From the NCBI GenBank assembly GCA_964393745.1, contig CAYMVA010000127.1:2046-66045 (forward strand): DNA of 64,000 nt. Direction: 5' to 3'. Below the pieces are notes generated by a model. The model made no database searches. It was given only the letters and a program-made list of their open reading frames with translations, and was not told the origin of the DNA. Source of the stretch: an uncultured Enterobacteriaceae bacterium. Lineage in GTDB: Bacteria > Pseudomonadota > Gammaproteobacteria > Burkholderiales > SG8-39. Below, in pieces: positions 14,185 through 54,753 of this stretch (within the stretch, counting starts at the first letter, position 1; every line of letters starts with the position of its first letter). The translations under genes and the position numbers were made by a program.

Positions 14185-14189
14185 GGCGT

Positions 14190-17253
<3,064 letters not shown>

Positions 17254-31340: not shown

Positions 31341-31347
31341 CGCGGGC

Positions 31348-33897
31348 CTACAGCGTCCGCGCGACCTCGAGGATCTCGAACACCTCGAACTGGTCGCCTT
31401 CCTTGAGTTCCTGGAAGTTCTTGAGCGACATGCCGCACTCGAAGCCGGATTTCACTTCGCGCACATCGTCCTTGAACCGCTTGAGGGTGTCGATCTCGCC
31501 GCTGTGGATGACGACGTTGTCGCGCAGCACCCGCAACTGGGCGCCGCGCTTCACCAGGCCCTCCAGCACGTAGCAACCGGCGACCGTGCCCACCTTGGAG
31601 ATGCGGAACACCTGGCGCACCTCGACCAGGCCGAGCACCTGCTCCCTCTTCTCCGGCGCGAGCATGCCACCCAGAGCCGCCTTGATCTCTTCCACCGCGT
31701 CGTAGATGACGTCGTAGTAGCGGATGTCGACGCCGGAAGACTCGGCCAGCTTGCGCGCCGCGGCGTCGGCGCGGGTGTTGAAGCCGATGATCACGGCGCG
31801 GGAGGCGAGCGCGAGGTTGACGTCCGACTCGGTGATGCCGCCGACGCCGCCGTGCACCACGCCCACCTTGACCTCGTCCGTCGAGAGCCGTGTCAACGCG
31901 TGCACCAGCGCTTCCTGCGAACCCTGTACGTCCGCCTTGATGAGCAGCGACAGCGTCTTCTTGCCGCCTTCGGCCATCTGGTCGAACATGTTTTCCAGCT
32001 TGGCGGCCTGCCGCCGGGCGAGCTTGACGTCGCGGAACTTGCCCTGGCGGAACAGCGCGATCTCTCGCGCCTTGCGCTCGTCGGTGATGACGACCATCTC
32101 GGCGCCCGCATGGGGCACGTCGGACAGGCCTTGCAACTCAACCGGGATCGAGGGCCCCGCAGATTGCACCGGCTTGCCGTTCTCGTCCAGCATCGCGCGC
32201 ACCCGGCCATACACCGCGCCGATGAGAACCACGTCGCCGCGGTTCAGGGTGCCGGACTGCACCAGCAGCGTCGCCACCGGGCCGCGGCCCTTGTCCAGGC
32301 GCGCCTCGATCACCACCCCCTTGGCGGGCGCGGCCACCGGCGCCTTCAATTCCTTCACCTCGGCCTGCAGCAGCACCTGCTCCAGCAGCATGTCGATGCC
32401 CTCGCCGGTCTTTGCCGACACCGGGACGATCGGCGAGTCGCCGCCGAGATCCTCGGGCACCACGCCGTGGCCGAGCAGTTCCTGCCTCACTTTCTCCGGA
32501 TTGGCTTCGTGCTTGTCGATCTTGTTGATGGCGACCACCAGCGGCACCCCGGCTGCCTTGGCATGGTTGATCGCCTCGATGGTCTGCGGCATGACGCCAT
32601 CGTCCGCGGCGACCACGAGAACCACGATATCGGTCACTTTGGCGCCCCGCGCCCGCATCGCTGTGAATGCTTCGTGGCCGGGCGTATCGAGGAACGTGAT
32701 TACCCCGCGTGGCGTCTCGACATGGTAGGCGCCGATGTGCTGGGTGATGCCGCCGGCCTCGCCGGCTGCCACCTTGGTGCGCCGGATGAAGTCGAGCAGC
32801 GAAGTCTTGCCATGGTCCACATGGCCCATGACCGTCACCACGGGGGGACGCGGCTCCGGTTCGGCCGCGCCCATCGGCTCGGCTTCGATCACGTAGGCCT
32901 CCGGATCGTCGAACTTCGCCGCCTTGGCCTTGTGCCCCATTTCCTCGACCACGATCATCGCGGTCTCCTGGTCCAGGACCTGGTTGATGGTGACCATGTT
33001 GCCAAGCTTCATCAGCGCCTTGATCACCTCGGCCGCCTTGACCGCCATGCGGTGCGAGAGCTCGCCCACGGTGATGGTTTCCGGCACCGCGATCTCGCGC
33101 ACCACCGGCTCGGCGGGCGCACTGAAGGCCGGCTGCTCGCTGGTCTGGCTGCTGCGGCGGTGACCGGCCCCGCGCGGGCCATGCCATCCGCCCACGCCGC
33201 CGCCGGAGTCGCCCCGCGTCTTGATCTGCCGGCGGCGCGTCGCATCGCCGCGCAGCACCGTGACCTCTTTGACCTTCTTCGGCTTTTTCTCGCCCTTGAC
33301 CTCCCGGGCATGCAGCGTGCCGTCCTTGAGCGCCGCCGTAGTCGCACCGGGCGCCGCCACCGTCGCCGGCAGCACCTGTGGCGCGGCGCTGGCATCGCGT
33401 TGCGCTTCCTTCTGCTCGACTTCGCGGCGCTCGCGTTCCTGCTTCTCACGCAGCTCGCTCGCCTGGATCTCGGCCAGCTGCTGCTGGCGGCGCTGCTCCT
33501 GCTCGCGCAGCTCCAGCTCATGGGCGTCGATTGCATGCGGCGCCGGTGGCGGCAATTCCGCCGCGCTAGCGGCCGCCGCCAGCTCGGCGGGATCGCGCTT
33601 CACGAACACGCGCTTCTTGCGCACCTCCACCTGGATGGTGCGCGCCTTGCCCATCGCGTCGGACTTCTTGATCTCGCTCGAATGCTTGCGCGTGAGCGTG
33701 ATCTTGTTCTTGGCCTCGATCGAGCCGTGCGAACGCCGCAGGTAGGCGAGCAGCTTGGACTTGTCCTGCTCGGACAGCGCGTCCTCGGGAACGCGCTTCT
33801 CCACGCCCGCGGCGCGCAGCTGCTCGAGCAGCACCGAAGGCGGAACCTTGAGTTCGCTCGCGAACTGGGCGACGCTGGTCTGGGCCACGGTGCTCAC
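31348..33897 (-). CDS. infB: Translation initiation factor IF-2
   Basis: 849-aa ORF with a GTG start overlapping the nusA stop (GTGA), a charged low-complexity N-terminal region and the GTPase motifs [18 protein letters not shown]. Confidence 0.96.
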
Positions 33898-35405
33898 GCC
33901 CCCTTCTGCGCCGGCTCGGGCTGCGCTTCGGCAGCGAACCAGTGCGCACGCGCCGCCATGATCAGGCCCTTGGCGCGCGCATCGTCCACGCCCGTCATCT
34001 CGGAGAGCTCGTCCACCGCCAGGTCGGCGAGCGCATCGCGCGTCTTGACGCCGCCCTGCGCCAGCTTGGCGGCGAGCTGCGTGTCCATGCCCTCGAGCTG
34101 CAGCAGCGACTGCTCCACGCCCTCAAGACTCTCTTCGCTCGCGATCGCCTGCACCAGCAGCGCGTTGCGCGCCCGGCTGCGCAGCTCGTTGACGGTGTTC
34201 TCGTCGAAGGCGTCGATCTCCAGCATCTCGTTGATTGGCACGTACGCCACTTCCTCGAGCGAGGAAAAGCCCTCCTGGATGAGGATGCCGGCGACCTCCT
34301 CGTCGACATCCAGCTTGTCTATGAAAAGCGCCTTGAGGCGGCCCGATTCCTCCTGCTGCTTCTTGGTGGACTCCTCCTCGGTCATCAGGTTGATGGTCCA
34401 CCCGGTGAGCTCCGAGGCGAGGCGCACGTTCTGGCCGCTGCGGCCAATGGCGATGGCGAGGTTCTCCTCGTCCACCACCACGTCCATGGCGTGTTTCTCC
34501 TCATCCACCAGGATCGAGCTCACTTCGGCCGGCGCCAGCGCGCCGATCACGAATTGCGCCGGATCGGCGGCCCAGAGCACGATGTCGACGCGCTCCCCGG
34601 CGAGTTCCTGGGTCACGGCCTGCACGCGCGAGCCGCGCATGCCGACGCAGGTGCCGATCGGCTCGATGCGCCGGTCATTGGTGTGCACCGCGATCTTGGC
34701 GCGGATCCCGGGATCGCGCGCCGCCGACTTGATCTCCAGCAGTTTTTCCTCGATCTCCGGCACCTCGAGCTCGAACAGCTTCATGATGAACTGCGGCGCG
34801 GTGCGCGACAGCACCAGTTGTGGGCCGCGCGCGCCGCGGTCGATCTTCATCACCCAGGCGCGCACCCGATCGCCGATGCGCAGGTTCTCCTTCGGGATCA
34901 TCTGCTCGCGCGGCAGCATCGCTTCCAGGCGCCCTGATTCGACGATCGCGCTGCCGCGCTCCATGCGCTTTACCGTGCCGGTCACCAGCTCGTCGCCGCG
35001 GCCGAGGAAGTCGTTCAGGATCTGCTCGCGCTCGGCATCGCGGATGCGCTGCAGGATCACCTGCTTGGCGGTCTGCGCGCCGATGCGGCCGAACGGGATC
35101 GCCTCGAGCGGTTCCTCGATGAAGTCCTCGAGCTTGATGTCGGCGCGCGCCTTCTGCGCCTCCGACAGCGTCACCATCTGGGCCGGCACCATCTCCAGCG
35201 TGTCGTCGGCCACCACTTTCCAGCGGCGGAACGACTCGTGGTTGCCGGTGTTGCGGTCGACCGCAACGCGCACGTCGACGTCCTCGCTGAAGCGCTTCTT
35301 GGTCGCCGAGGCGAGCGCCAGTTCGAGCGCGCCGAAAACCACGTCGCGATTGACGTTCTTCTCGCGCGCCAGCGCGTCTACCAGCAGTAGAATTTCTCGG
35401 CTCAT
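33894..35405 (-). CDS. nusA: Transcription termination/antitermination factor NusA
   Basis: 503-aa ORF starting [18 protein letters not shown].., with S1, two KH domains and C-terminal acidic repeat domains. Confidence 0.96.
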
Positions 35406-35423
35406 ACGTGCTCTCTCCAGTTG

Positions 35424-35858
35424 CTACAGGTCCGGCACCAGCCGGGCCCGATCTATTCCATCCAGCGGCAGCGCCACCAGCTGCCCTTCCACTTCCACGG
35501 TGGCGACCCCGTCCTCCACGCTGCGCAGCACGCCGACGAAGCGCCTGCGCCCGCCCGCGTCCGGCGCCCGCATGCGCACATCCGCCTTGCGGCCCGCGAA
35601 GCGGGCGAAATCCGCGGCCTTGCGCAGCGGTCGGTCCAGCCCCGGCGACGACACCTCGAGCCGGTCGTAGTCGATCCCTTCGACCGCGAAAACCCGCGAC
35701 AGGTGCCGGCTGACATCGGCGCAGTCATCCAGCGTGACCCCGCCCGGCCGGTCGACAAAGATGCGCAGCTGGCGTCCCCGGTTGGACACTTGCGCGTCCA
35801 CCAGTTCGTAGCCCATCCCCGCGAGGGTGGACTCCACAATGCCCGCTAACGCCAACAC
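35424..35858 (-). CDS. rimP: Ribosome maturation factor RimP
   Basis: RimP-like core ..IVESTLAGMGYELVD... The start is uncertain. GTG 35858 is preferred because the longer ORF (to 35939) would run through the rluB terminator hairpin at 35884..35912. Confidence 0.85.
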   Translation of the reverse strand: MLALAGIVESTLAGMGYELVDAQVSNRGRQLRIFVDRPGGVTLDDCADVSRHLSRVFAVEGIDYDRLEVSSPGLDRPLRKAADFARFAGRKADVRMRAPDAGGRRRFVGVLRSVEDGVATVEVEGQLVALPLDGIDRARLVPDL

Positions 35859-42216: not shown

Positions 42217-42978
42217 TTACCTCGGCGCCATGCGAATGGCGCCATCCAGGCGAATGGTTTCGCCGTTCAGCATCTCGTTCTCTACGATGTGGCGCGCGAG
42301 CGCCGCGTATTCCACCGGGTTGCCCAGGCGCGAGGGGAACGGCACTTGCTTGCCGAGCGACTCCTGCGCCTCCTTCGGCAGCCCGAGCAGCATCGGCGTG
42401 AGGAACAGGCCCGGCGCGATGGTGACCACGCGGATGCCGTTGCGCGACAGGTCGCGCGCGATCGGCAGCGTCATGCCGACAATGCCGCCTTTGGAGGCTG
42501 AGTAGGCCGCCTGGCCAATCTGGCCATCGAACGCCGCCACCGATGCCGTATTGACGATGACGCCGCGCTCGCCCGCCGCGTTGGGCCCAGCCTTCGCCAT
42601 GGCATCGGCGGCCAGCCGAATCATGTTGAAGGTGCCGATCAGGTTGATGTTGATGACGCGCGTGAAGTTGGCGAGGTTGTGCGGTGCGTCCTTGCCGATG
42701 GTGCGCTCGGCGACGCCGATGCCGGCGCAGTTGACCAGCACATGCAGGCCGCCGTACTCCTTCAGCGCGAGCGCCACCGCCGCCTGGCCATCGGCTTCCC
42801 TGGTGACGTCGCACTTGATGAACTTGCAGCCGAGTTCCTTGGCGTGCTTCTCGCCGGTTTCGACCTGCAGATCGGCGATCACCACCTTGCCGCCGTTTTC
42901 CGCGGCCATGCGCGCAGTGGCTCCGCCCAGGCCCGAGGCGCCGCCGGTGACGAGGAAAACGCTGTTCTTGATCTGCAT
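42217..42978 (-). CDS. Short-chain dehydrogenase, 3-hydroxyacyl-CoA dehydrogenase type-2-like
   Basis: 253-aa ORF with TGGASGLG and the catalytic YSASK. Overall it resembles HSD17B10/FadB2-type SDRs. Confidence 0.85.
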
Positions 42979-43036
42979 GTGGACTCCGATGAAATGACCG
43001 GTGGAATAAGGCGGCGATTATAATTCACGCCCCTCC

Positions 43037-46000
43037 ATGGCGCGCCTCGGTTTCGATCTTTCATTCGAGCAGCTCTACCGGCGCGACGGCCTGGAGCGCG
43101 TGGACGCGGCGTTCCTGCAGTTCCTCGGCGAAGCCGATGCGCCGCTGCGCGATCGGCTGCTCGCGGCGCGCGCCAACCCGCAACGGCTCGCCGCCAAATC
43201 CGAATCCGATCTGCTGATCGCGCTTGCGCCGCATCTGGACGACTTTCTCGCGCGGCTGTTCGCGATCGAGGCCGAAGCGCAGGCGCTGGCCGCGCGCCAC
43301 CACAACTTCGCCCCGCTGTATTCGGTCAAGCGCCTGTTCGTGCAGCGCCGCGCCTTGCACAAGGTCAAGCCCGAGGAGGCCGCGGCGCTAGACGGCACCG
43401 CAGTGGAACAGGAACTGCGCGCGCTGTTCGACGGGCAGTTCACCGAGCTCGCGTTCGCGCGCCACGTCACCGAATGGCAGAAAGACGAGGCCGCCAATGG
43501 CGGGCGGCTCGAGCTCGCGGCGCGCTACGCGGCTTGGGCTGCGACCACGCCCGAAGGTAGGGCCAAGCACCGTGGCGGCGTGCTTTTCAAGGCGCCGCGC
43601 AAGCTCGACTACATGCGCCTGGTGCCGGTGAAAACCGACGACTCGCGCGGCTACGCGCGCCATTCGCTCGCGCACCTGCGGCGCCGCGAGGGTTTCGCGC
43701 TTACCGATCCGGGAACGGACCTCGTGGGCGCGCTCGACCAGGCGAACTACTGCATCTGGTGCCACGAGCAGGGCAAGGACTCCTGCTCCAAGGGGCTGAA
43801 AGAGAAGGCGCCGGCGACCGGCTACCGCAAGTCGCCGCTGGGGACCGCGCTCGCCGGCTGCCCGCTGGAGGAGAAGATCTCCGAGTTCCATCTGGTCAAG
43901 GCGCGCGGCCAGGCGCTCGCCGCGCTGGCGATGATCTGCGTCGATAATCCGATGGTCGCCGCCACCGGCCACCGCATCTGCAACGACTGCATGAAGGCCT
44001 GCATCTACCAGAAGCAGGAGCCGGTCGATATCCCGCAGGCGGAGACGCGGACCCTCAAGGACATACTCGGGCTGCCCTGGGGCTTCGAGATTTACTCGCT
44101 GCTCACGCGTTGGAACCCGCTCAACGTGCACCGCCCGCTGCCGTTGCCGGACACAGGCCGCAAGGTGCTGGTGGTAGGCCTCGGCCCCGCTGGCTTCACG
44201 CTGGCGCACCACTTGATGAACGACGGCCACACCGTGGTCGGCATCGACGGCCTCAAGATCGAGCCTCTGCCGGCAGCGCTCTCTGGCGTGGACGCGCTCA
44301 GCCGGCGCTTGGCGTTCGAGCCGGTGCGCGATGCGCTCGATCTCTACGAGCCGCTCGACAAGCGCGCCATGGCCGGCTTCGGCGGCGTCGCCGAGTACGG
44401 CATCCCGGTGCGCTGGGACAAGAACTTCCTCAAGCTGGTGCGGCTGCTGCTCGAGCGCCGCGCCGAGTTCGCCATGTTCGGCGGCGTGCGCTTCGGCGGC
44501 ACGCTCGCGCTCGAGGACGCCTGGGCGCTCGGCTTCGACCATGTCGCGCTATGCGTCGGTGCGGGCGGCCCCACGGTGCTCGACATTCCCAACGGCCTGG
44601 CGCGCGGCGTGCGCGCCGCCTCCGACTTCCTCATGGCGCTGCAATTGACCGGCGCGGCGAAGCAGGATTCGATCGCCAACATGCAGCTGCGCCTGCCGGT
44701 GGTGGTGATCGGCGGCGGGCTCACGGCGATCGACGCCGCCACCGAGTCGCTCGCCTACTACGTGGCGCAGGTGGAGAAATTCCTCGCGCACTACGAGGCG
44801 CTTTCGAAGGAGAGCGGCGAGGACGCGATCCGCGCCGGCTGGGACGACTACGAGCGCGAGATCGCCGAGGAATTCCTGGCGCACGCGCGCGCGATCCGCG
44901 GCGAGCGCCGGGAGGCAGCGCGCGAAGGCCACGCGCCGCGCATCGTGGAGCTGTTGCAGCACTGGGGCGGGGTGACGATCGCCTACCGCCGGCGCCTCGT
45001 GGACAGCCCCTCTTACACGCTCAACCACGAGGAGGTGGAGAAAGCGCTCGAGGAAGGCATCTGGTTCGCCGAGAACCTCGCTCCCGTCGCCGTCGATGTG
45101 GACCACTACGGCGCGGCGCGCGGCATCCGCCTCAAGCACGCGCCCAGCGGCAAGGAGCACTGGCTCCCCGCGCACACGGTGTTCGTCGCCGCGGGCACGC
45201 AGCCGAACACGGTGCTCGCGCGCGAGCACGCGACAGAGTTCACGCTGGACGGGAAGTATTTCGCCGCTTGCGACGAAGCGGGCAATCCGGTCAAGCCGCA
45301 GCCCTCCACTTCCAAGCCCGATGCGGTACGCGTGCTGCTCTCGCGGCAGGCCGACGGCCGCTGCGTCAGCTTCTTCGGTGACGTGCATCCGTCCTATTTC
45401 GGCAACGTCGTCAAGGCGATGGGCTCGGCGAAGCAGGGCTACCCAGTGGTGTCGCGCGTGCTCGGCGCGCGCGCGCCCGCAAGCAATGCGTCGCGCCAAC
45501 CATTTTTCGCCGCGCTCGCCGGCCAGCTCGTGGCGACGGTCGAGCGCGTAGAGCGCCTCACGCCTACGATCGTAGAGGTCGTGATGCGCGCGCCGCTCGC
45601 CGCACGCAAATTCCGTCCCGGCCAGTTCTACCGGCTGCAGAACTTCGAGTCGCTCGCCCCCGTGGTGCACGGCACGCGCATGCAGATGGAAGGCCTCGCC
45701 ATGACCGGCGCCTGGATGGACCGCGACCAGGGCCTGGTGTCGATCATCGCGCTCGAGATGGGCGGCTCGAGCGACCTGTGCGCGATGCTGCAGCCGGGCG
45801 AGCCGGTGATCCTGATGGGACCTACCGGCGCGCCTACCGAAACTCCCGGCGGCGAGACCGTGGTGCTGTGCGGCGGCGGGCTGGGCAACGCGGTGCTGTT
45901 CTCGATCGGCGCCGCGTTCCGCGCCGCCGGCTCGAAGGTGCTTTATTTCGCCGGCTACAAGAAGGTGCAGGACCGCTACAAGGTAAGCGAGATCGAGAAC

Positions 46001-46507
46001 GCCGCCGACGTCGTGGTCTGGTGCTGCGACGAGCAGCCCGGCTTCGAGCCGCGCCGGACGCAGGCCCTGCGCGTCATCGGCAACATCGTGCAGGCGATGG
46101 CCGCCTATGCCGCAGGGCGCCTGGGCAAGCCCGCGATCCGGCTCGAGGACGCCGACCGCATCATCGCCATCGGCTCCGACAGGATGATGGCGGCGGTGGC
46201 GCGCGCACGCCACGACCTGCTCAAGGGCCACCTCAACCCGCGCCACGTCGCCATCGGCTCGATCAATTCGCCGATGCAATGCATGATGAAGGAGATCTGC
46301 GCGCAGTGCCTGCAGCCGCACCGCGACCCGCAGACCGGCGAGACCAGCTACGTGTTCTCCTGCTTCAACCAGGACCAGCCCCTCGACCGCGTCGAGTTCG
46401 GCGTGCTGAACGATCGCCTGAAGCAGAACTCCCTCGCCGAGAAGCTCACCGCGAAGTGGCTGCGGCATTGCATGCCGGAGCTGAAGAAACAGCGTAAATT
46501 TGTGTAG
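43037..46507 (+). CDS. Large fused iron-sulfur flavoprotein: unknown N-domain + GltD/NfnB-like pyridine-nucleotide oxidoreductase + PyrK/NfnA-like FAD/NAD(P) 2Fe-2S domain
   Basis: 1156-aa ORF. Cys clusters CIWCHEQGKDSC and CNDCMKAC; two Rossmann motifs (VVGLGPAGF, VIGGGLTAID). The C-terminal ferredoxin-reductase-like part has PGQFYRL and CGGGLGNAVL, plus a terminal Cys motif CMMKEICAQC...SC. The first 230 aa or so match nothing I recognise. Confidence 0.8.
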   Translation: MARLGFDLSFEQLYRRDGLERVDAAFLQFLGEADAPLRDRLLAARANPQRLAAKSESDLLIALAPHLDDFLARLFAIEAEAQALAARHHNFAPLYSVKRLFVQRRALHKVKPEEAAALDGTAVEQELRALFDGQFTELAFARHVTEWQKDEAANGGRLELAARYAAWAATTPEGRAKHRGGVLFKAPRKLDYMRLVPVKTDDSRGYARHSLAHLRRREGFALTDPGTDLVGALDQANYCIWCHEQGKDSCSKGLKEKAPATGYRKSPLGTALAGCPLEEKISEFHLVKARGQALAALAMICVDNPMVAATGHRICNDCMKACIYQKQEPVDIPQAETRTLKDILGLPWGFEIYSLLTRWNPLNVHRPLPLPDTGRKVLVVGLGPAGFTLAHHLMNDGHTVVGIDGLKIEPLPAALSGVDALSRRLAFEPVRDALDLYEPLDKRAMAGFGGVAEYGIPVRWDKNFLKLVRLLLERRAEFAMFGGVRFGGTLALEDAWALGFDHVALCVGAGGPTVLDIPNGLARGVRAASDFLMALQLTGAAKQDSIANMQLRLPVVVIGGGLTAIDAATESLAYYVAQVEKFLAHYEALSKESGEDAIRAGWDDYEREIAEEFLAHARAIRGERREAAREGHAPRIVELLQHWGGVTIAYRRRLVDSPSYTLNHEEVEKALEEGIWFAENLAPVAVDVDHYGAARGIRLKHAPSGKEHWLPAHTVFVAAGTQPNTVLAREHATEFTLDGKYFAACDEAGNPVKPQPSTSKPDAVRVLLSRQADGRCVSFFGDVHPSYFGNVVKAMGSAKQGYPVVSRVLGARAPASNASRQPFFAALAGQLVATVERVERLTPTIVEVVMRAPLAARKFRPGQFYRLQNFESLAPVVHGTRMQMEGLAMTGAWMDRDQGLVSIIALEMGGSSDLCAMLQPGEPVILMGPTGAPTETPGGETVVLCGGGLGNAVLFSIGAAFRAAGSKVLYFAGYKKVQDRYKVSEIENAADVVVWCCDEQPGFEPRRTQALRVIGNIVQAMAAYAAGRLGKPAIRLEDADRIIAIGSDRMMAAVARARHDLLKGHLNPRHVAIGSINSPMQCMMKEICAQCLQPHRDPQTGETSYVFSCFNQDQPLDRVEFGVLNDRLKQNSLAEKLTAKWLRHCMPELKKQRKFV

Positions 46508-46528
46508 TAGCCGCGACTGATCGTAGTT

Positions 46529-47350
46529 ATGCCCGCCTACGCCAGGCCGACCCGCGTCGATGAAGCGCTGAAAGTACTTGCGCAGGGCGGTTGCGCGGTG
46601 CTCGCCGGCGGCACCGACCACTACCCGGCGCGGGTAGGGCGCGCGCCCGACGAAGACATCCTCGACCTCACCGCGATCCGCGAGCTGCGCGGCATCGCCG
46701 AGCGGCGTGACCACTGGCGTATCGGCGCGACCACCACCTGGACGGAGGTGATCGAAGCGAAGCTGCCGCCGCTGTTCGATTGCCTGAAATATGCGGCCCG
46801 CGAAGTAGGCGGCATGCAGATCCAGAACGCGGGCACGGTGGCCGGAAATCTATGCAACGCCTCGCCCGCCGCGGACGGCGTGCCGCCGCTGCTCGCGCTG
46901 GGCGCCAGCGTAGAACTCGCCAGCATTCAACGAAAGCGCACGCTGCCGCTTGCCGAGTTCATCACCGGCCCGAGGAAAACGGCACTGCGCCCGGGCGAGC
47001 TGCTGAGCGCGGTGCTGGTGCCGAAGCCCAAGCACGCCGCTCGCAGCGGCTTCCTCAAGCTCGGCGCGCGCAAGTATCTCGTCATTTCCATCGCCATGGC
47101 GGCCGGGGTGATCGAGCGCGATGGCGGCATCGTGCGCGCGGCGCGCATCGCCGTGGGTGCGTGCTCGCCCGTGGCGAAGCGGCTACCGGCGCTCGAAGCG
47201 GCGTTGATCGGCAAGCCGCTGAGCAGCGATCTGGCGCGGCCCGAGCATCTGGCGGTGCTCGCGCCGATCGACGACGTCCGCGGCAGCGCCGGGTATCGCA
47301 GCGAAGCAGCGCTGGTGCTGGTGCGCCGATTGTTGGACGAGCTCGCATGA
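46529..47350 (+). CDS. Xanthine dehydrogenase family FAD-binding subunit (CoxM/XdhB-like)
   Basis: 273-aa ORF with FAD_binding_5-type motifs (LAGGTD, NAGTVAGNLCNASPAAD) and a C-terminal CO-dehydrogenase flavoprotein domain (DVRGSAGYR). Confidence 0.9.
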   Translation: MPAYARPTRVDEALKVLAQGGCAVLAGGTDHYPARVGRAPDEDILDLTAIRELRGIAERRDHWRIGATTTWTEVIEAKLPPLFDCLKYAAREVGGMQIQNAGTVAGNLCNASPAADGVPPLLALGASVELASIQRKRTLPLAEFITGPRKTALRPGELLSAVLVPKPKHAARSGFLKLGARKYLVISIAMAAGVIERDGGIVRAARIAVGACSPVAKRLPALEAALIGKPLSSDLARPEHLAVLAPIDDVRGSAGYRSEAALVLVRRLLDELA

Positions 47351-50091
47351 ACAAGCCTCGCGCCAAATTCCTCGCCGAGGCGGTTGCCTTCACCGTCAAC
47401 GGCCGCAAGGTGCGCGCCACTTCCGCGCGCGCCGCCCGCCTCGCCGACGTGCTGCGCGACGAGCTCGGCCTCACCGGCACCAAGATCGGCTGCAACGCCG
47501 GCGATTGCGGCGCCTGCACCGTGCTGCTCGATGGCCGCCAGGTGTGCTCGTGCCTCACCGCACTCGGCCAGGTCGAGGGCCGCGAAGTCCTGACCGTCGA
47601 AGGCCTCGCCGCGAAGGGAAAACTTTCCGACCTGCAGGCAGCGTTCCAGAACCACGGCGCTGCGCAGTGCGGCATCTGCACGCCGGCCATGCTGATCGCT
47701 GCGGCGGATCTGCTTGCGCGCAATCCGGACCCAGATGCCGCCGAGGTCCGGGACGCGCTCGGTGGCGTGCTGTGTCGCTGCACCGGCTACCAGAAGATCG
47801 TAGAGGCCGTGCTGGCGGCAAAGTGTAAAGTCACACTTTACACTTTGCCCGCTGCAGGCCGGGCGGTCGGGGCGCGCGCCGGCAAGGTGGACGGCATTGC
47901 CAAGCTCAATGGCACCGAGCGCTACGGCGCCGATGCGATCCCGGCGGACGCGCTCTGGCTGCGCGTCATGCGCTCGCCGCACCATCGCGCGCGCTTCCGC
48001 TTCGGCAACCTCGACGCCTGGCGCCGCGGCCTGCCGGGCATCGAGCGGCTGCTCACCGCTGCCGATGTGCCCTCGAACGGCTTCGGCATCTATCCGCACA
48101 TCAAGGACCAGCCGGTGCTCGCCGCAGGCGAAGCGCGTTTCCGCGGCGAAGCGGTGGCCGCGGTGATCGGCAGCCGCGAAGCGATCGAGCGGCTCGATGC
48201 GAATGCTTTCCCGGTGAGCTGGGAGCCGCTCGAACCGGTGCTAGGCCTCGATGCGGCGATGGCGCCCAAAGCGCCGCGCGTTCAGCCAAACAAACCGGAC
48301 AACTTGCTGCTCGATGGCGGCGTGAGGAAAGGCGATCCCGCCTCCGCATGGGCGCAATGCGCAGCGATCGCGGAGGCGAGCTTCGAGACCGCGTTTGTTG
48401 AGCATGCCTACATCGAGCCCGAAGCCGGCTGGGCGCGGCGCGTCGGCCACCGGATCGAGATCCATGTCTCCACGCAGACGCCTTACATGGACCGCGACGA
48501 GACCGCGCTGGTGATGAAGCTCGAGCCCGAGCAGGTGCGGATCGTGCCGAGCGCGTGCGGCGGCGGCTTCGGCGGCAAGCTCGACATGGCGGTGCAGCCG
48601 CTTATCGCGCTCGGCGCCTGGCTCACGCGCAAGCCCGTCGCCTGCGTGTACACGCGTCCCGAGAGCATGGCTTCGAGCACCAAGCGCCACCCGGCGCGCA
48701 TCCACGCCAAGTTCGGCTGCGATGAGCGCGGGCGATTGCTCGCCTGCGAAATGGATGCGCTCTTCGACACCGGCGCCTACGCTAGCTGGGGTCCGACGGT
48801 CGCGACGCGGGTCCCGATCCACGCCACCGGCCCCTACCTCGTGCCGCACGTAAAGACGCGCGGTCGCGCCTACTTCACGCATTGCCATCCGTCGGGCGCG
48901 TTCCGCGGCTTCGGCGTGCCGCAGGGCGCGATCGCGCACGAAGCGCTCATGGATGAGCTCGCCGACGGCATCGGCATGGACCGGCTCGAGTTCCGGCGCG
49001 TGAACGCGCTCAAAGCGGGTGACGCCACCGCCACCGGCCAGGTGCTCGAGCATTCCGCCGGGCTCGCCGAGTGCCTCGATGCGCTCGAGCCGCATTGGCG
49101 CCGCGCCAGGCGCGAGTGCGAAACGTTCAATGCGAAGCACGCGACGCGCAAGCGCGGCGCCGGCATCGGCTGCATGTGGTACGGCATCGGCAACACCTCG
49201 CTTTCCAACCCTTCGACGATACGCGCCGCCATCCGGCCCGACTGTAAAGTCACGCTTTACAGTGGCGCGGTGGACATCGGCCAGGGCTGCAGCACCACCC
49301 TCACCCAGGTGTGCGCCGATGCGCTCGGCCTGCCGATGCAGGATTTCCACCTCGTCATGGGCGATACCGATCTCACGGCCGACGCGGGCAAGACCTCTGC
49401 CTCGCGCCAAGCCTTCGTCTCGGGCAAGGCGGCCGAGCTCGCGGGGCTGGATCTGCGTCAGAAACTCTTCGCCGCCGCCGGCGCTCCGAACGGCGCATGG
49501 CGCGACCGCGACTACCGGCTCTCGCTCGAAGGCGGCAAGCTGGTGTTCCGCAAAGGTGGCATCACCCATCGCGTGAAGCTGCGCGAGCAATTGATAGGTG
49601 AAGGCTACTTCGATCCTCCGACCAAGCCCTCGGACGCCGACGGACAGGGCGTTCCCTACGCCACTTATGCGTTCGCCGCGCAGGTCGCCGTGGTCGAGGT
49701 GGATCTCGAACTGGGCACCACCAAGGTGCTGCGCATCCACGCCGCGCACGATGTCGGCCGCGCGCTCAACCCGATCCAGGTCGAGGGCCAGATCCAGGGC
49801 GGCGCGGCGCAAGGACTCGGCATGGCGCTAATGGAGGAGTACGTTCCAGGCAAGACCGAGAACCTGCACGACTACCTGATCCCGACCATCGGCGACATGC
49901 CGCAATTCGATTGCATCCTGGTGGAGGACCCCGAGCCGCTCGGTCCCTACGGCGCCAAGGGCGTTGGCGAGCCGGGGTTGATTCCGACCGCGCCGGCGAT
50001 CCTCGGTGCGATCGAGCACGCCACCGGCGTGCGCATGCGCCGCGTACCCGTGCTGCCGCATCGCTTATTGGCAGCGCTGAAAGCCAAATGA
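47347..50091 (+). CDS. Fused [2Fe-2S] + molybdopterin-binding hydroxylase subunit (xanthine dehydrogenase / aldehyde oxidoreductase family)
   Basis: ATG 47347 overlaps the upstream stop (ATGA). The N-terminal part carries two 2Fe-2S motifs (CNAGDCGACTV, CGICTPAM...CRCTGY). A linker of about 12 aa is encoded by a palindromic repeat, followed by a MoCo domain (..GGGFGGK.., ..DIGQG..). About 914 aa as read in this sequence. Confidence 0.85.
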   Translation: MNKPRAKFLAEAVAFTVNGRKVRATSARAARLADVLRDELGLTGTKIGCNAGDCGACTVLLDGRQVCSCLTALGQVEGREVLTVEGLAAKGKLSDLQAAFQNHGAAQCGICTPAMLIAAADLLARNPDPDAAEVRDALGGVLCRCTGYQKIVEAVLAAKCKVTLYTLPAAGRAVGARAGKVDGIAKLNGTERYGADAIPADALWLRVMRSPHHRARFRFGNLDAWRRGLPGIERLLTAADVPSNGFGIYPHIKDQPVLAAGEARFRGEAVAAVIGSREAIERLDANAFPVSWEPLEPVLGLDAAMAPKAPRVQPNKPDNLLLDGGVRKGDPASAWAQCAAIAEASFETAFVEHAYIEPEAGWARRVGHRIEIHVSTQTPYMDRDETALVMKLEPEQVRIVPSACGGGFGGKLDMAVQPLIALGAWLTRKPVACVYTRPESMASSTKRHPARIHAKFGCDERGRLLACEMDALFDTGAYASWGPTVATRVPIHATGPYLVPHVKTRGRAYFTHCHPSGAFRGFGVPQGAIAHEALMDELADGIGMDRLEFRRVNALKAGDATATGQVLEHSAGLAECLDALEPHWRRARRECETFNAKHATRKRGAGIGCMWYGIGNTSLSNPSTIRAAIRPDCKVTLYSGAVDIGQGCSTTLTQVCADALGLPMQDFHLVMGDTDLTADAGKTSASRQAFVSGKAAELAGLDLRQKLFAAAGAPNGAWRDRDYRLSLEGGKLVFRKGGITHRVKLREQLIGEGYFDPPTKPSDADGQGVPYATYAFAAQVAVVEVDLELGTTKVLRIHAAHDVGRALNPIQVEGQIQGGAAQGLGMALMEEYVPGKTENLHDYLIPTIGDMPQFDCILVEDPEPLGPYGAKGVGEPGLIPTAPAILGAIEHATGVRMRRVPVLPHRLLAALKAK
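47821..47855. repeat. 35-nt AT-rich palindromic junction element, copy A (inside the 2Fe-2S/MoCo linker)
   Basis: aagTGTAAAGTcacACTTTACActttgcccgctgc has 9-bp perfect arms (47823..47843). It is 32/35 identical to 60717..60751. Confidence 0.85.
49242..49262. repeat. Related 21-nt perfect palindrome inside the MoCo-domain coding sequence
   Basis: CTGTAAAG-tcacg-CTTTACAG. The core tgtaaagtcacNctttaca differs from copy A at one position and encodes the same CKVTLY peptide. Confidence 0.8.
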
Positions 50092-51581
50092 GCAACCCGC
50101 TCGACGCACGAGATCCGGAAGACGCACTGGCGCCGGATAGCGGCACGCTCGGCGGCGACGTCATCCGCTGCGACGCCTGCCCGGTGCTGTGCCGCATTCG
50201 CAAGGGGCAAAGCGGCGCCTGCGACCGCTACGCCAACGAGAACGGCAAACTGGTGCGCCTCGACCCGCTGCTGATCCTTCAGCGTGGCAGCGCGGCGGTG
50301 CCGTTCCTCGAGCCCGGCAAGCCTTGGGACGGCAAGCTGATCTCCGCGTCGAACACCTTCGTCACCGGGGTCGGCGCAACCACCACCTACCCCGACTACA
50401 AACCCGCGCCGTTCATCGTCGCCTCTAAATTCGAAGGCGTGGACGTGGTGACGGTGGTCACCGAGGGGATTTTTTCCTACTGCGGCCTGAAGGTGAAGAT
50501 CGACACCGACCGCTTTCTCGGCCCCGAGCAGGCGGCGGTGCGCGTCGCAGGCGAGCAGATCGGGCACGTCACCACCGCGGAATACGGCTCGCAGATGCTG
50601 TCGCTCGGCGGCGTGCGCCACCTCACCGGCGGCTCGAAGAAGGAAGGCACGGTCACCTGCGAGGCGCTGCTCAAGCTCTCCAATAAGGAGGCGGTAGAAC
50701 TGCAGGTGGACGGCGGCACCACAGTGCGGGTGCAGGCGGGCGAGGCGCCGGTGGTGAATGGCGCACACGAGGCGCGCATGCGGGTGGGCTGCGGCAGCGC
50801 CACCATCGGTATCTTCGCCAAGCAGTGGCACGGCCATGCCGACGAGGTGATCGTAGTGGACGACCACATCACCGGCGTGCTCACCGAGCACCAAGCCGGG
50901 CGTTTCCTCGACATGCGGCCGGCCGGTATCCGCGTGCGCGGCCGCAAGTCCACGCCGGGGCGCTATTTCAAGGTCGCCGAGCCAGGCATGGGCTGGGGCG
51001 GCACCGACATCACCGATCCGCTCGCGATCGTGGAGAAAATAGATCCCAAAACCGCCTGGCCGGGAATGCGTCTGCTGATGGTCTCGACTACCGGCGAGGA
51101 CGCCGAATGGTTCGTGCTCGACGAAGCGCTCAAGCCGCGGAAAGCGCCGATGCCCGAGCCGGTGCGCAAAGTGGTGGAGCGCATCGCGGAGAACTGCGAG
51201 CCGGCGCTGTGCACGGTGCTGTTCATGGGCGGCGCCGGCGGCTCGCTGCGCGCCGGCGTGACCGAGAACCCGGTGCGCCTTACGCGCTCGGTGAAGGAAC
51301 TGATCACGCGCGTCACCTGCGGCGGTGCGCCGGTTTACGTCTGGCCCGGCGGCGGCATCACCGTGATGGTGGACGTGCTGCGCATGCCGGAGCGCTCTTT
51401 CGGCTACGTGCCGACGCCCGCGCTGGTGCTGCCGATCGAATTCACGCTGCCGCTCGCTGCCTATGGCGCGATGGGCGGGCATATGGATCGCGTCGTTACA
51501 CTGGACGAGGCGCTGCGCCGCGCCGAGTTCAAGTCGGAGCCCTGGCGCGAAGCAAATCCCTGGCCCGTAGGCAAAGCATGA
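50088..51581 (+). CDS. 6-hydroxynicotinate-reductase-like Fe-S protein (family assignment from memory, unverified)
   Basis: ATG 50088 overlaps the upstream stop (ATGA). About 497 aa with an N-terminal Cys cluster CDACPVLCRIRKGQSGAC. I recognise the sequence type as the family usually annotated 6-hydroxynicotinate reductase, commonly paired with a UPF0280 gene. Confidence 0.6.
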   Translation: MSNPLDARDPEDALAPDSGTLGGDVIRCDACPVLCRIRKGQSGACDRYANENGKLVRLDPLLILQRGSAAVPFLEPGKPWDGKLISASNTFVTGVGATTTYPDYKPAPFIVASKFEGVDVVTVVTEGIFSYCGLKVKIDTDRFLGPEQAAVRVAGEQIGHVTTAEYGSQMLSLGGVRHLTGGSKKEGTVTCEALLKLSNKEAVELQVDGGTTVRVQAGEAPVVNGAHEARMRVGCGSATIGIFAKQWHGHADEVIVVDDHITGVLTEHQAGRFLDMRPAGIRVRGRKSTPGRYFKVAEPGMGWGGTDITDPLAIVEKIDPKTAWPGMRLLMVSTTGEDAEWFVLDEALKPRKAPMPEPVRKVVERIAENCEPALCTVLFMGGAGGSLRAGVTENPVRLTRSVKELITRVTCGGAPVYVWPGGGITVMVDVLRMPERSFGYVPTPALVLPIEFTLPLAAYGAMGGHMDRVVTLDEALRRAEFKSEPWREANPWPVGKA

Positions 51582-52435
51582 GTGGTCCCGTCCACGCAAT
51601 CCTCCCCGGCGGCCGGCTGCACCTGCAGCACGGTCCCATCGACTTGGTGATCGAAGCCTGGGGTGAGCAGCACGAGGTCGCCACCGCCTACGAGCAGGCG
51701 TGGCAGCACTTTCACGACATCCTGGGGACGCTGGTCGCGGAGTTGCCGCTTCTGCGCGCGGCGGTCGGTGCGGCCTATCCGCTCGCGCGCGGGCCAGTGG
51801 CGCGCCGCATGGTCGCGGCGGTCTGGCCGCTCCGCGAAGTGTTCATCACGCCGATGGCGGCGGTCGCCGGCAGCGTCGCCGACGAAATTCTCGCCGCGCT
51901 GTGCGCGGGTAGGCGCCTCGACAAGGCATTTGTGAACGACGGCGGCGACATCGCGCTGCATCTCGCGCCGCATCAACGCCTCGATACCGGGATCGTGGCC
52001 GATCCGCGCCGTCCCATGCTCTGCGGCAGCGTGTGCGTGGAGGCGAGCGACCCGGTGCGCGGCATCGCCACCTCCGGTTGGCGTGGGCGCTCGCAGTCGC
52101 TCGGCATCGCCGACGCCGTGACCGTGCTCGCGCGCAGCGCGGCGATGGCCGACGCCGCCGCGACGCTGGTCGCCAACGCGGTCAACGCAGAGCACCCGGC
52201 GATCCGCCGGCTGCCGGCGCGGCAAGTCAAGGAGGACAGCGACCTCGGCGAGCTGCCGGTGACCGTCGCGGTCGGGCCCCTGCCGCCCGGGATGGCGGAG
52301 GCTGCGCTAGACTCTGGCTTGAGAGTTGCCGAGGCGCTCAGGGGGCGCGGACTGCTGCACACCGCTTTCCTGTCGCTGCAGCAGCAAACGCAAGTGCTTA
52401 GGATGAGCAACCTTCCGCTCACCGTTCAGAACTGA
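51578..52435 (+). CDS. UPF0280 family protein (ApbE-like fold)
   Basis: ATG 51578 overlaps the upstream stop (ATGA). About 285 aa with the ITPMAAVAGSVADEI motif typical of the UPF0280/ApbE-like superfamily. Confidence 0.7.
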   Translation: MSGPVHAILPGGRLHLQHGPIDLVIEAWGEQHEVATAYEQAWQHFHDILGTLVAELPLLRAAVGAAYPLARGPVARRMVAAVWPLREVFITPMAAVAGSVADEILAALCAGRRLDKAFVNDGGDIALHLAPHQRLDTGIVADPRRPMLCGSVCVEASDPVRGIATSGWRGRSQSLGIADAVTVLARSAAMADAAATLVANAVNAEHPAIRRLPARQVKEDSDLGELPVTVAVGPLPPGMAEAALDSGLRVAEALRGRGLLHTAFLSLQQQTQVLRMSNLPLTVQN

Positions 52436-52448
52436 AAGGAGCCCGACC

Positions 52449-53165
52449 ATGCAACTGAGCCGACGTGATTCCCTCAAAGTGCTGGCGGCGCTCGCCGCCG
52501 CCGGCGCCCTGCCCTCCATCGCCCAGGCAGCCAAGCTCAAGCCGGGCGCCGACTCGGTGCTGATCGTGGTGGACGTGCAGAACTGCTTCGTCACCGGCGG
52601 CACGTTGCCGGTGAAGGAAGGCGAGCAGGTGGTGCCGCTCATTAACAAGCTGGCGAAAATCTTCCAGAACGTGGTCATCACCCAGGACTGGCACACAGCC
52701 GGGCACGTTTCGTTCGCTTCGGCGCACGCCGGCAAGAAGCCTTTCGAGACTACCAAGCTCAGCTACGGCACGCAGGTGCTGTGGCCGGACCACTGCGTCC
52801 AGGGCACGCCCGATGCAGCGCTGCACAAGGACCTCGAAATCCCGCACGCGCAGCTGGTCATTCGCAAGGGCTATCACAAAAGCACCGACAGCTACTCCGG
52901 TTTCGTGGAAGCCGATCGCAAGACGCAGACGGGGCTTGCCGCCTACCTCAAGGCGCGCGGCATCAAGCAGTGCTACGTCACCGGCCTGGCGACCGATTTC
53001 TGCGTCGCCTGGACCGCGCTCGATGCGCGCAAGGCCGGATTCAAGGCGGCAGTGATCGAGGATGCGTGCCGCGGCATCGATTTGCAGGGCTCGCTCGCCA
53101 AGGCCTGGGCGACGATGAAGGTGGCGGGCGTGCAGCGCCTGCAGTCGGCCGAGCTGCTCGGTTGA
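52449..53165 (+). CDS. pncA: Nicotinamidase/pyrazinamidase with a twin-arginine signal peptide
   Basis: 238-aa ORF collinear with E. coli PncA. It has the catalytic Asp (VVDVQNCF), the metal site QDWHTAGHVSF, WPDHCVQ and the catalytic Cys (GLATDFCV). The N-terminus MQLSRRDSLKVLAALAAAGALPSIAQA fits a Tat signal. Confidence 0.9.
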   Translation: MQLSRRDSLKVLAALAAAGALPSIAQAAKLKPGADSVLIVVDVQNCFVTGGTLPVKEGEQVVPLINKLAKIFQNVVITQDWHTAGHVSFASAHAGKKPFETTKLSYGTQVLWPDHCVQGTPDAALHKDLEIPHAQLVIRKGYHKSTDSYSGFVEADRKTQTGLAAYLKARGIKQCYVTGLATDFCVAWTALDARKAGFKAAVIEDACRGIDLQGSLAKAWATMKVAGVQRLQSAELLG

Positions 53166-53569
53166 GAGCGCTCGCCGCCGCGCTGCTTTTTCTTGCCAGC
53201 GCCTGCGCGCTCGCCGGCGGCAAGGTCGAGGTGATCTACCTCGGCACCAACGACTGCCCCTACTGCCGCCACTGGGAGGCGGCGCGCAAGCCCGAGTTGC
53301 TCTCCTCGCCCGAAGGCAAGGCGGCGAGCTACCGCGAGGTGCGCGGCGAAACGCTGCGCAAACCGATTGACGCGGCGCACTACCCTGCCGACCTCAAGTG
53401 GGTGGCCGAGCAGATCGGGCCGAGCCGCGGCGTGCCGCGCTTCGTGCTCGTGGTGGACGGCAAGGTGGTGATGAACGTGATGGGCACCGAGGCTTACCAG
53501 CAGGCGTTCCTGCCCGCGCTCAGGCGGGCGGTCGCGGACACAAGTTCAACCGGAGGAGGAAAACAATGA
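53162..53569 (+). CDS. Small secreted thioredoxin/glutaredoxin-fold protein (CPYC active site)
   Basis: TTG 53162 overlaps the pncA stop, giving (M)RALAAALLFLASACALAGG.. (signal peptide), then YLGTNDCPYCRHW and a cis-Pro-like GVPRFVL. The start codon is inferred, as there is no in-frame ATG before the signal peptide. Confidence 0.6.
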   Translation: MRALAAALLFLASACALAGGKVEVIYLGTNDCPYCRHWEAARKPELLSSPEGKAASYREVRGETLRKPIDAAHYPADLKWVAEQIGPSRGVPRFVLVVDGKVVMNVMGTEAYQQAFLPALRRAVADTSSTGGGKQ

Positions 53570-54753
53570 AACTGCGCACTCTCGCCGCGTTCGCCGCGGC
53601 CGCAACGGTCTCGTTCGGCGCCCAGGCGCAGGCGATCAAGATCGGCGAGCTGAACAGCTACAAGGTGTTCCCTGCGTTCCTCGAGCCCTACAAAAAGGGC
53701 TGGGAGCTGGCGCTTGAGGAGATCAACAAGTCGGGCGGCGCCGCGGGCAAAAAGCTCGAAGTGGTGTCGCGCGAGGACGGCGGCAACCCGGGCGACGCGG
53801 TGCGCGTCGCCGAGGAACTGATCACGCGCGAGAACGTGTCGCTCCTCATGGGCACCTTCGCGTCGAACATCGGCCTCGCGGTCTCCAACCTCGCCAACCA
53901 GAGAAAGATCGTGTTCATCGCCGCCGAGCCGCTCACCGACAAGATCGTGTGGGACAACGGCAACCGCTACACCTTTCGGCTGCGGCCCTCGACCTACATG
54001 CAGGTGGCGATGCTGATCCCGGAGGCGGCGAAGCTCAAAAAGCAGCGCTGGGCGATCGTCTACCCCAACTACGAGTACGGCCAGTCGGCCACCGCTTCGT
54101 TCAAGAAGCTGCTCACTAAAGCGCAGCCCGGCGTGCAGTTCGTGGGCGAGCAGGCTCCGGCGCTTGGCAAGATCGAGGCCGGCGCCGTGGTGCAGGCGCT
54201 GGCGGACCTCAAGCCCGACGCCATCTTCTCGTCGCTCTTCGGCGCCGACCTGCAGAAGTTCGTGCGCGAAGGCAACCTGCGGGGGCTATTCAAGGACCGG
54301 CCGGTATTCAACCTGCTCGCCGGCGAGCCCGAGTACCTCGATCCGCTCAAGGACGAGACCCCGGACGGCTGGTACGTCACCGGCTATCCCTGGAACGAGA
54401 TCAAGACCGCAGCGCACCAGAAATTCCTCGCCGCCTACCAGGCCAAATACAAGGACTACCCGCGCCTGGGCTCGATCGTAGGCTACTCGACCATGTATAC
54501 GGTGGCGAACGTGATCAAGCGCGCCGGCGGCGCCGACACCGAGAAGCTGATTGCGGCGATGAAAGGCATGGAGATGGACACCCCGATCGGCCCGATCGTG
54601 TGGCGCGCGGTCGACAACCAGTCCACCATGGGCGCGTACGTCGGCCGGCTGGCGAAAAAGGACGGCAAGGGCGTGATGGTCAACTGGCGCTTCGCCGACG
54701 GGGCCCTGTTCCTGCCGCCCTTCGAGGAAGTCCGGGCAATGCGGAAGGACTAA
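53566..54753 (+). CDS. ABC transporter periplasmic substrate-binding protein (Leu/Ile/Val-binding, Peripla_BP_6-like)
   Basis: ATG 53566 overlaps the upstream stop. Signal peptide MKLRTLAAFAAAATVSFGAQAQA followed by IKIGELNS... Confidence 0.88.
   Translation: MKLRTLAAFAAAATVSFGAQAQAIKIGELNSYKVFPAFLEPYKKGWELALEEINKSGGAAGKKLEVVSREDGGNPGDAVRVAEELITRENVSLLMGTFASNIGLAVSNLANQRKIVFIAAEPLTDKIVWDNGNRYTFRLRPSTYMQVAMLIPEAAKLKKQRWAIVYPNYEYGQSATASFKKLLTKAQPGVQFVGEQAPALGKIEAGAVVQALADLKPDAIFSSLFGADLQKFVREGNLRGLFKDRPVFNLLAGEPEYLDPLKDETPDGWYVTGYPWNEIKTAAHQKFLAAYQAKYKDYPRLGSIVGYSTMYTVANVIKRAGGADTEKLIAAMKGMEMDTPIGPIVWRAVDNQSTMGAYVGRLAKKDGKGVMVNWRFADGALFLPPFEEVRAMRKD

Follow-up and report, generated by a model that had tools for sequence, protein, structure and literature searches.

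What does a large iron-sulfur flavoprotein do directly upstream of a nicotinate hydroxylase operon, and is it there on that operon's account? The question is raised by a stop-free reading frame encoding 1156 amino acids (aa) (43037-46507, + strand, ATG to TAG) in a 64,000-nucleotide (nt) stretch of DNA, here called the window, from an uncultured Enterobacteriaceae bacterium (GTDB lineage Burkholderiales; SG8-39). The window covers positions 2,046 to 66,045 of contig CAYMVA010000127.1 (assembly GCA_964393745.1). The reading frame, referred to here as the RP005 gene after the family to which its product is assigned, ends 21 nt before a nicotinate (nic) cassette that includes a gene resembling that for 6-hydroxynicotinate reductase (Hnr), and the original prediction had proposed its product as a possible dedicated supplier of low-potential electrons to this operon. 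The results suggest instead that the RP005 protein is a housekeeping oxidoreductase between NAD(P)H (reduced nicotinamide adenine dinucleotide or its phosphate) and ferredoxin, which the nic operon exploits; we give this reading a probability of about 55%.

Architecture and conserved residues of the RP005 protein

The full-length protein was modelled with AlphaFold2 (AF2), giving a predicted local distance difference test score (pLDDT) of 89.6 and a predicted template modelling score of 0.91, and residue conservation was measured across an alignment of 84 orthologues. The reading frame, the order of parts, both cysteine clusters and the 21-nt gap to the hydroxylase operon were all confirmed in the sequence as originally described. 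All parts of the protein are encoded on the + strand.

The N-terminal domain (residues 1-228; 43037..43720) is of the RP005_N type and is modelled as an all-alpha bundle with a small beta hairpin (pLDDT 89.3). A Foldseek search of the PDB showed no match (best E 4.5, template modelling (TM) score below 0.2), and searches of PDB sequences with a profile and of the local Pfam and NCBIfam collections gave nothing. When 1.84 billion representative sequences were searched with phmmer, only proteins of 1044-1195 aa with the same architecture, or fragments, were matched; as judged from these searches, the domain is family-specific. The scans and structure prediction that had been proposed for this domain thus gave a confident all-alpha fold, no PDB relative and no function. 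Its description as unassigned still holds for its function, but not for the domain itself, which is catalogued as PF27156 (RP005_N) in close homologues.

The next domain (residues 229-345; 43721..44071) is of the domain-I type found in GltD, NfnB and dihydropyrimidine dehydrogenase (DPD), with a weak Fer4_20 match at residues 273-336, and it aligns with residues 81-182 of Pyrococcus furiosus NfnI-L and Xfn. It carries the cysteine motifs CIWCHEQGKDSC (residues 239-250) and CNDCMKAC (residues 315-322), and probably binds two [4Fe-4S] clusters. Seven cysteines in this region are invariant among the orthologues (C239, C242, C250, C275, C315, C318 and C322); C301 is not, and E283, H243 and H312 are. 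Because only these seven cysteines are invariant and are accompanied by three other invariant candidate residues, the pattern suggests that one of the two predicted clusters has a non-cysteine ligand. NfnB likewise has a non-cysteine ligand at one of its [4Fe-4S] clusters.

Two nucleotide-binding modules follow. The NfnB/GltD-like module, a two-Rossmann unit for flavin adenine dinucleotide (FAD) and NADPH, spans residues 346-812 (44072..45472; Pyr_redox_2 match at 376-739), and both of its Rossmann motifs, GLGPAG (381-386) and GGGLTAID (559-566), are invariant. A TIAYRR motif is common to the RP005 protein and P. furiosus Xfn, with Y650 and R651 invariant, and the AF2 secondary structure places a helical insertion of about 80 aa (residues 562-642) inside the NADPH domain. 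The NfnA/PyrK-like module for FAD and NAD(H) spans residues 813-1120 (45473..46396), with matches to PRK06222 and PyrK-type NCBIfam models at 834-1013. It contains GGGLGNA (946-952) and a predicted [2Fe-2S] motif, CMMKEICAQC...SC (1082-1109; pattern C-x5-C-x2-C...C); GGGLGNA and the four cysteines C1082, C1088, C1091 and C1109 are invariant. The chain ends in C-terminal helices (residues 1121-1156 plus TAG; 46397..46507; AF2 helices at 1121-1128 and 1132-1155), in which R1127, L1128, Q1130, E1135 and W1141 are invariant. In alignment A1, large parts of the C-terminal NAD-binding subdomain are deleted in some distant members (P0183, P0161 and P0241), which retain the cluster motif PMQCMMKE.C.QC; some lineages may be able to do without the second nucleotide site.

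Relationship to Nfn, GltD and the RP005 family

The AF2 model was searched against the PDB with Foldseek, and the sequence profile of the 84 orthologues was searched against PDB sequences. The profile matched Xfn (5vj7_A, 3.7e-19), Thermotoga maritima NfnA (4ylf_A, 1.8e-14) and NfnI-S (4.7e-14), and NfnI-L and NfnB too. By fold, the NfnB-like half resembled NfnI-L (5jfc_L, E 3e-19, TM 0.78 on the target), T. maritima NfnB (4ylf_B, 0.73) and GltD (6s6s_E, 0.70); the NfnA-like half resembled NfnI-S (5jca_S, TM 0.86), NfnA (4ylf_A, TM 0.83) and PyrK (0.76-0.79). Nfn subunits are thus the best solved relatives of both halves of the RP005 protein by profile and, slightly above GltD and PyrK, by predicted fold, in agreement with the claim that its two halves correspond to the two Nfn subunits. 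NCBIfam models of GltD scored only 46-55 bits on it. A role as a glutamate synthase small subunit with a GltB partner was considered and rejected, no GltB-like gene being found in the 28-64 kb part of the window.

The likeness to Nfn covers the two modules, every cofactor motif and TIAYRR at the NADPH site. The sites expected of NfnB (two [4Fe-4S] clusters, FAD and NADPH) are present as judged from sequence and predicted fold, and those expected of NfnA (FAD, NAD(H) and [2Fe-2S]) are indicated by GGGLGNA, the four cysteines and the TM scores of 0.83-0.86. Identity to Nfn subunits is about 18-23%. Nfn is a heterodimer or an NfnA-then-NfnB fusion without extra domains, whereas the RP005 protein is a single chain in which the NfnB-like module precedes the NfnA-like one, as had been predicted, behind an additional N-domain of about 230 aa and with the helical insertion of about 80 aa. 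The RP005 family also differs from Nfn in being found chiefly in lineages with aerobic cultured representatives.

Fused Nfn homologues of reversed order, termed 'Pattern C', are known from Actinobacteria and from Alpha- and Gammaproteobacteria and are uncharacterised (Liang, Huang and Wang 2019, PMC6405883). As in the RP005 protein, their part for a-FAD, NAD and [2Fe-2S] is C-terminal and they are longer than the clostridial fused Nfn; compared by description only, Pattern C proteins exceed the fused Nfn of about 757 aa by about 200 aa (PMC6405883) and the RP005 protein exceeds it by about 400 aa. The corresponding NCBIfam model, PRK12779, matched the RP005 protein weakly (86 bits).

The best NCBIfam model was PRK06567 (NF005128), which matched residues 3-979 with E 6.6e-236 and 785.7 bits. 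Since this score lies under the equivalog cut-off of 1072, the match indicates the wider family rather than the equivalog, and the protein is by this measure a Burkholderiales branch, not the Rickettsiales equivalog. PRK06567 proteins share the full-length architecture of the RP005 protein, N-domain included, and RP005_N homologues reach 94% identity. Homologues at 75-94% identity carry the precomputed pair PF27156 and PF07992, and gene calls on related contigs name PF27156 as RP005_N; judged via these homologues, the protein has the RP005_N and Pyr_redox_2 domains in one chain that define membership of the RP005 family. In the literature, PRK06567 figures as a chimera of GltD and UbiB that almost all Rickettsiales genomes encode (PMC3641634), and a protein of this type was loosely annotated, without test, as glutamine-converting in Ehrlichia (PMC4251998). 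A literature search on fused Nfn in Rickettsia found nothing. The RP005 family is widespread, catalogued and functionally uncharacterised, and the protein studied here is a genuine member of it, so that its gene represents no new type of system.

Distribution of the RP005 gene and of Hnr

The RP005 gene was far more common than the Hnr-like gene at every level sampled. Among 24 other genomes of the same family, 22 had the RP005 gene and 11 the Hnr-like gene; in 16 genomes from other families of the order, the numbers were 7 and 0. In a class sample of 400 genomes drawn evenly, 92 genomes had the RP005 gene and 4 the Hnr-like gene, and the two sets overlapped solely in the window's own genome. 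RP005-positive genomes of this sample included complete ones of 1.0-1.4 Mb. When one genome per species was scanned, at least 599 proved to encode a relative, at 61-76% identity; among the matches listed, the carriers belonged to Burkholderiales and Nitrosomonadales (Betaproteobacteria), Alphaproteobacteria, Acidobacteriota and Planctomycetota. These results show that the RP005 gene is a general core-genome gene and not a nicotinate gene.

Another genome of the order (G030) has two full-length copies of the RP005 gene (L037 on G030:C2 and L038 on G030:C6). Because the copies fall in different clades of the tree, they are attributed to an old duplication or a transfer.

Linkage of the RP005 gene to the nic cassette

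Eleven of 40 relatives were Hnr-positive, and in 8 of these 11 the cassette lay within 8 kb of the RP005 gene on the same contig; counted over relatives carrying both genes, the figure is 8 of 10. The cassette directly adjoins the RP005 gene in G006, G009, G011 and G020, is divergent from it in G024, and is separated from it by 2 kb in G001, 3.7 kb in G010 and 8 kb in G003. Linkage was seen in 4 of 80 species loci, and of 7 further long contigs with Hnr, 4 carried an RP005_N gene close by on the upstream side (L132, the P0298 contig, L134 and L135). Physical linkage where both genes are present is therefore frequent, not universal.

In the tree of the RP005 gene, cassette-adjacent copies fell in four separate clades, one of which (L075 and L104) lies inside the alphaproteobacterial branch. 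A concatenate of the Mo-subunit and Hnr sequences was used because the Hnr tree alone left the deep branching unresolved. The concatenate supported a g1+g10 clade at 100/100 and rejected the topology of the RP005 gene (approximately unbiased (AU) test, p-AU 3.6e-98), and the RP005-gene data rejected this clade of the cassette topology (p-AU 4.5e-43). By these tests, the histories of the RP005 gene and of the cassette are in conflict.

The two alphaproteobacterial loci, from metagenome-assembled genomes, have a nic-type MarR gene (L075 9527-9979; L104 3777-4184) directly upstream of a native-type RP005 gene, which is followed by the cassette. These regulators are 62% and 42% identical to the MarR of nic clusters without an RP005 gene (L128 and L130), and regulators of this type were absent from all other RP005-gene loci examined. 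The native RP005 genes of these loci, at about 67% identity, are too divergent for recombination in the flanks; as the RP005 gene is of native type and a nic-type MarR gene is directly upstream, flank recombination does not fit them. The RP005 gene and the cassette of L075 are separated by a gene with an EAL domain on the other strand, and in L104 two tandem PF06684 (AA_synth) genes (13925-15090) lie between the ApbE-like gene and a gene for a LivK-type binding protein.

The region downstream of the RP005 gene is a rearrangement hot spot. In close relatives it contains just LivK, just PncA, or the cassette at a distance of 1-8 kb. In some congeneric genomes (L026/G005, L028/G008 and L024/G003), PncA stands directly 3' of the RP005 gene with no hydroxylase or Hnr genes there; in G008, hydroxylase and Hnr genes are on another contig. 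A LivK-type gene 68-80% identical to that of the window (53398-54753) adjoins the RP005 gene in L032, L039, L029 and L043 and in the Casimicrobiaceae loci L089, L092, L100, L108, L112 and L120; in some loci it follows the RP005 gene, and in Casimicrobiaceae it lies on the upstream side in divergent orientation; the nic cassette was not found in those loci. This neighbour may be left over from the island or represent a link of its own.

Candidate ferredoxin partner and alternative reductases

Hnr (EC 1.3.7.1) uses reduced ferredoxin; Holcenberg and Tsai in 1969 and Alhapel and colleagues in 2006 are said to have identified this donor, and a literature search for 6-hydroxynicotinate reductase with ferredoxin found no papers. 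The 7Fe ferredoxin gene fdxA (NF045490, above cut-off) was present at about 10 of 87 RP005-gene loci and immediately preceded the RP005 gene, in the same orientation, in 9 of the 10, with a median gap of about 37 nt; in the arrangement of G024/L048, fdxA and the RP005 gene together face the cassette. It is the only functionally informative neighbour of the RP005 gene that recurs across lineages. The genome of the window encodes two FdxA-like 7Fe ferredoxins on other contigs (G000:C54:79027-79347 and G000:C105:50580-50879), which are 68% and 58% identical to the fdxA product upstream of orthologues.

G151, a genome from a different family of the class, lacks the RP005 gene, and its nic operon runs fdxA, fpr-like, FAD subunit, Mo subunit, Hnr and ApbE-like. 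The Fpr-like ferredoxin-NADP+ reductase (276 aa; PRK10926 E 1.9e-34; PF00175) is encoded by a gene overlapping fdxA. Since this operon starts with fdxA and the fpr-like gene, a ferredoxin and a reductase take the position upstream of hydroxylase and Hnr that is held elsewhere by the RP005 gene, with or without fdxA, and they presumably perform the same NADPH-to-ferredoxin task. The Fpr-like protein is an unrelated, simple flavoprotein that, unlike the RP005 protein, has neither Fe-S clusters nor a second nucleotide site. The same operon (L129, G151:C173, 479-7616) has an enamidase-like amidohydrolase gene after PncA, which the cluster of the window does not have. A complementary distribution of Fpr and the RP005 gene was also considered and rejected, because Fpr-like genes coexist with the RP005 gene in most relatives, the window genome included.

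Eubacterium barkeri lives anaerobically and can obtain reduced ferredoxin from other sources. Its nicotinate fermentation cluster, reportedly described by Alhapel and colleagues in 2006, is said to encode a hydroxylase and then a ferredoxin-dependent 6-hydroxynicotinate reductase, as here; no Nfn-like gene is known to belong to it.

Transcription signals and surroundings in the window

A perfect TATAAT box (43019..43024, + strand) lies 12 nt 5' of the ATG of the RP005 gene, and no Shine-Dalgarno sequence was found between box and ATG (43019-43036). Because the box is so close and a Shine-Dalgarno sequence is absent, the arrangement suggests that the mRNA is leaderless or nearly so; a consensus promoter scan did not call a full promoter at this site. 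A (G/C)NTATAAT(T) box also occurs 5' of orthologues in relatives with and without the nic cassette alike, at a distance varying from 12 to about 40 nt.

Downstream, sequence scans found no terminator-like or promoter-like site in the 21-nt spacer (46508..46528, + strand) between the RP005 gene and the gene for the hydroxylase FAD subunit. Because of this gap without promoter or terminator, the cassette of the window is probably read through from the RP005 gene's own promoter. The short gap is not conserved: opposite-strand genes or promoter-like spacers of 150 nt intervene in relatives.

The cassette itself (46529..53165, + strand), identified by Pfam and NCBIfam matches, consists of genes for a CoxM-like FAD subunit (46529-47350, ATG at 46529; PF00941 and PF03450), a fused 2Fe-2S/Mo subunit (about 47380-50091), the Hnr-like protein (50088-51581), to whose close homologues NCBI and JGI give the name 6-hydroxynicotinate reductase, a UPF0280/ApbE-like protein (about 51578-52435) and PncA (52449-53165), all on the + strand. 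On the other side, a divergent short-chain dehydrogenase/reductase (SDR) gene (42217..42978, - strand) is the last gene of a housekeeping block with truB, infB, nusA, rluB, scpA, trpS, M50, tsaC, a hydrolase, a gamma-carbonic anhydrase and the SDR, and its synteny is kept in relatives, which retain the block next to the RP005 gene; in Nitrosomonadales the context is instead pyrG, kdsA, eno and folD. The G+C content is 67% throughout the window, and no foreign-island signature was seen around the RP005 gene. An open frame of 1492 codons (31192-35670, + strand) was examined as a possible gltB partner or real gene and rejected, as it has no family match and is antisense to infB and nusA; it is a spurious long frame of the type typical of high-GC DNA.

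Proposed role and alternative explanations

The sequence data show the gene itself, its domain order and cofactor motifs, how widely it is distributed and what lies around it; its substrates, the way in which electrons flow and the tie to Hnr are inferred as follows. The RP005 gene encodes a soluble single-chain Fe-S flavoprotein with both Nfn-type halves behind a helical, family-specific domain. NADPH would reduce the FAD of the NfnB-like module, and electrons would leave via the two predicted [4Fe-4S] clusters to a small 7Fe ferredoxin of the FdxA type. The [2Fe-2S]/FAD/NAD(H) module would form a second branch of higher potential, making bifurcation of the Nfn kind, with oxidation of NADPH, possible. 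In this lineage the cassette has come to adjoin the gene on its downstream side, and reduced ferredoxin would then feed the ferredoxin-dependent reduction of 6-hydroxynicotinate, so that reducing equivalents released by nicotinate hydroxylation could be recycled.

A bolder version, which we regard as speculative and rather unlikely, makes the enzyme an Nfn of aerobes run in reverse: electrons of NADPH would be bifurcated uphill to FdxA and downhill to NAD+, a redox loop would lead from nicotinate hydroxylation over NAD(P)H and reduced ferredoxin to ring reduction by Hnr, and RP005_N would serve as a docking device for ferredoxin or another partner.

The original prediction held that the enzyme could be a dedicated low-potential electron supplier of the hydroxylase/Hnr operon, which would imply that it evolved with the operon, and stated that conservation of the gene independently of the hydroxylase and Hnr genes would refute this. 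Such independence was found, and because of it the idea of a dedicated supplier fails: the RP005 gene is far commoner than Hnr (22 vs 11 of 24 genomes in the family, 92 vs 4 of 400 in the class) and is kept in many complete genomes where Hnr was not found, as well as in Rickettsiales (PMC3641634). The upstream synteny and the gene's own TATAAT box are likewise conserved regardless of the cassette, the phylogenies of gene and cassette conflict, and cassette-adjacent copies are mixed among cassette-free ones in the tree rather than forming a distinct paralogous subfamily. A 21-nt gap without terminator, frequent adjacency and the order MarR, RP005 gene, cassette in L075 and L104 would suit a dedicated supplier, which we nevertheless consider highly improbable. 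What stands of the claim is a looser electron-supply link to the Hnr step, supported by gene context: adjacency in four clades, MarR upstream, fdxA, and replacement by fdxA and fpr.

The adjacency could alternatively be coincidental, a nic island occupying a variable site beside a core gene, by descent or flank recombination, with the enzyme serving only unrelated ferredoxin-dependent or housekeeping reactions. The variability 3' of the RP005 gene in close relatives, the other contexts of the island in some contigs and the availability of an Fpr-like reductase in the window genome are in keeping with this explanation. It accounts poorly, however, for the alphaproteobacterial loci, where RP005 genes of native type still adjoin the cassette with a nic regulator upstream, for the fdxA/fpr pair in the same operon position where the RP005 gene is missing, and for the need of Hnr chemistry for reduced ferredoxin, and we hold it to be possible but not probable. 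Still less probable, in our view, is a different electron acceptor, the enzyme being a glutamate-synthase-like or SudAB-like NADPH oxidoreductase that acts on a partner enzyme docked at the N-domain, on polysulfide or on quinone. Source annotations do read 'glutamate synthase beta subunit-like', GltD and DPD also match by fold, the N-domain could act as a docking platform and the C-terminal NAD subdomain is lost in some family members; yet no gltB or pyrD-type partner was found in the window, Nfn subunits outscore GltD and PyrK, and the sole informative neighbour recurring across lineages is fdxA.

Several observations also weigh against a housekeeping NAD(P)H:ferredoxin oxidoreductase exploited by the nic operon. 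The three other Hnr-positive genomes of the class sample (93-99% complete) gave no match to the RP005 gene at E 1e-20, implying that Hnr needs no such gene; the strict co-occurrence that had been proposed as a test is rejected by these genomes. In 3 of the 7 further Hnr contigs (L131, L133 and L136), no RP005 gene was found within 10 kb. Adjacency in Burkholderiales could reflect an inherited position, or exchange of the cassette by recombination in conserved flanks, and the clades compared by AU testing were named only once the trees had been inspected. fdxA is not adjacent to the RP005 gene in the window, and the Fpr-like reductase of the window genome (G000:C52:6400-7134, 255 bits) means that the RP005 gene is not the only candidate donor. 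Finally, the literature searched contained no biochemistry for any member of the RP005 family.

Significance

The RP005 family occurs in hundreds of species, among them nitrifiers, iron oxidisers, soil Burkholderiales, Acidobacteriota and Rickettsiales, with 61-76% identity across phyla and an uncharacterised function. What is new here is its nicotinate and ferredoxin context, above all the replacement by fdxA and fpr and the arrangement of MarR, RP005 gene and cassette. Because a ferredoxin-requiring pathway adjoins the gene and a ferredoxin/reductase pair substitutes where the gene is absent, this context is an independent line that turns 'NAD(P)H to ferredoxin' into a specific hypothesis about the family that enzyme assays can address. 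It also bears on the source of low-potential electrons in aerobes that use the reductive nicotinate route; if the reverse-Nfn version were true, oxygen-respiring bacteria would gain reductant at the level of ferredoxin without membrane energy.

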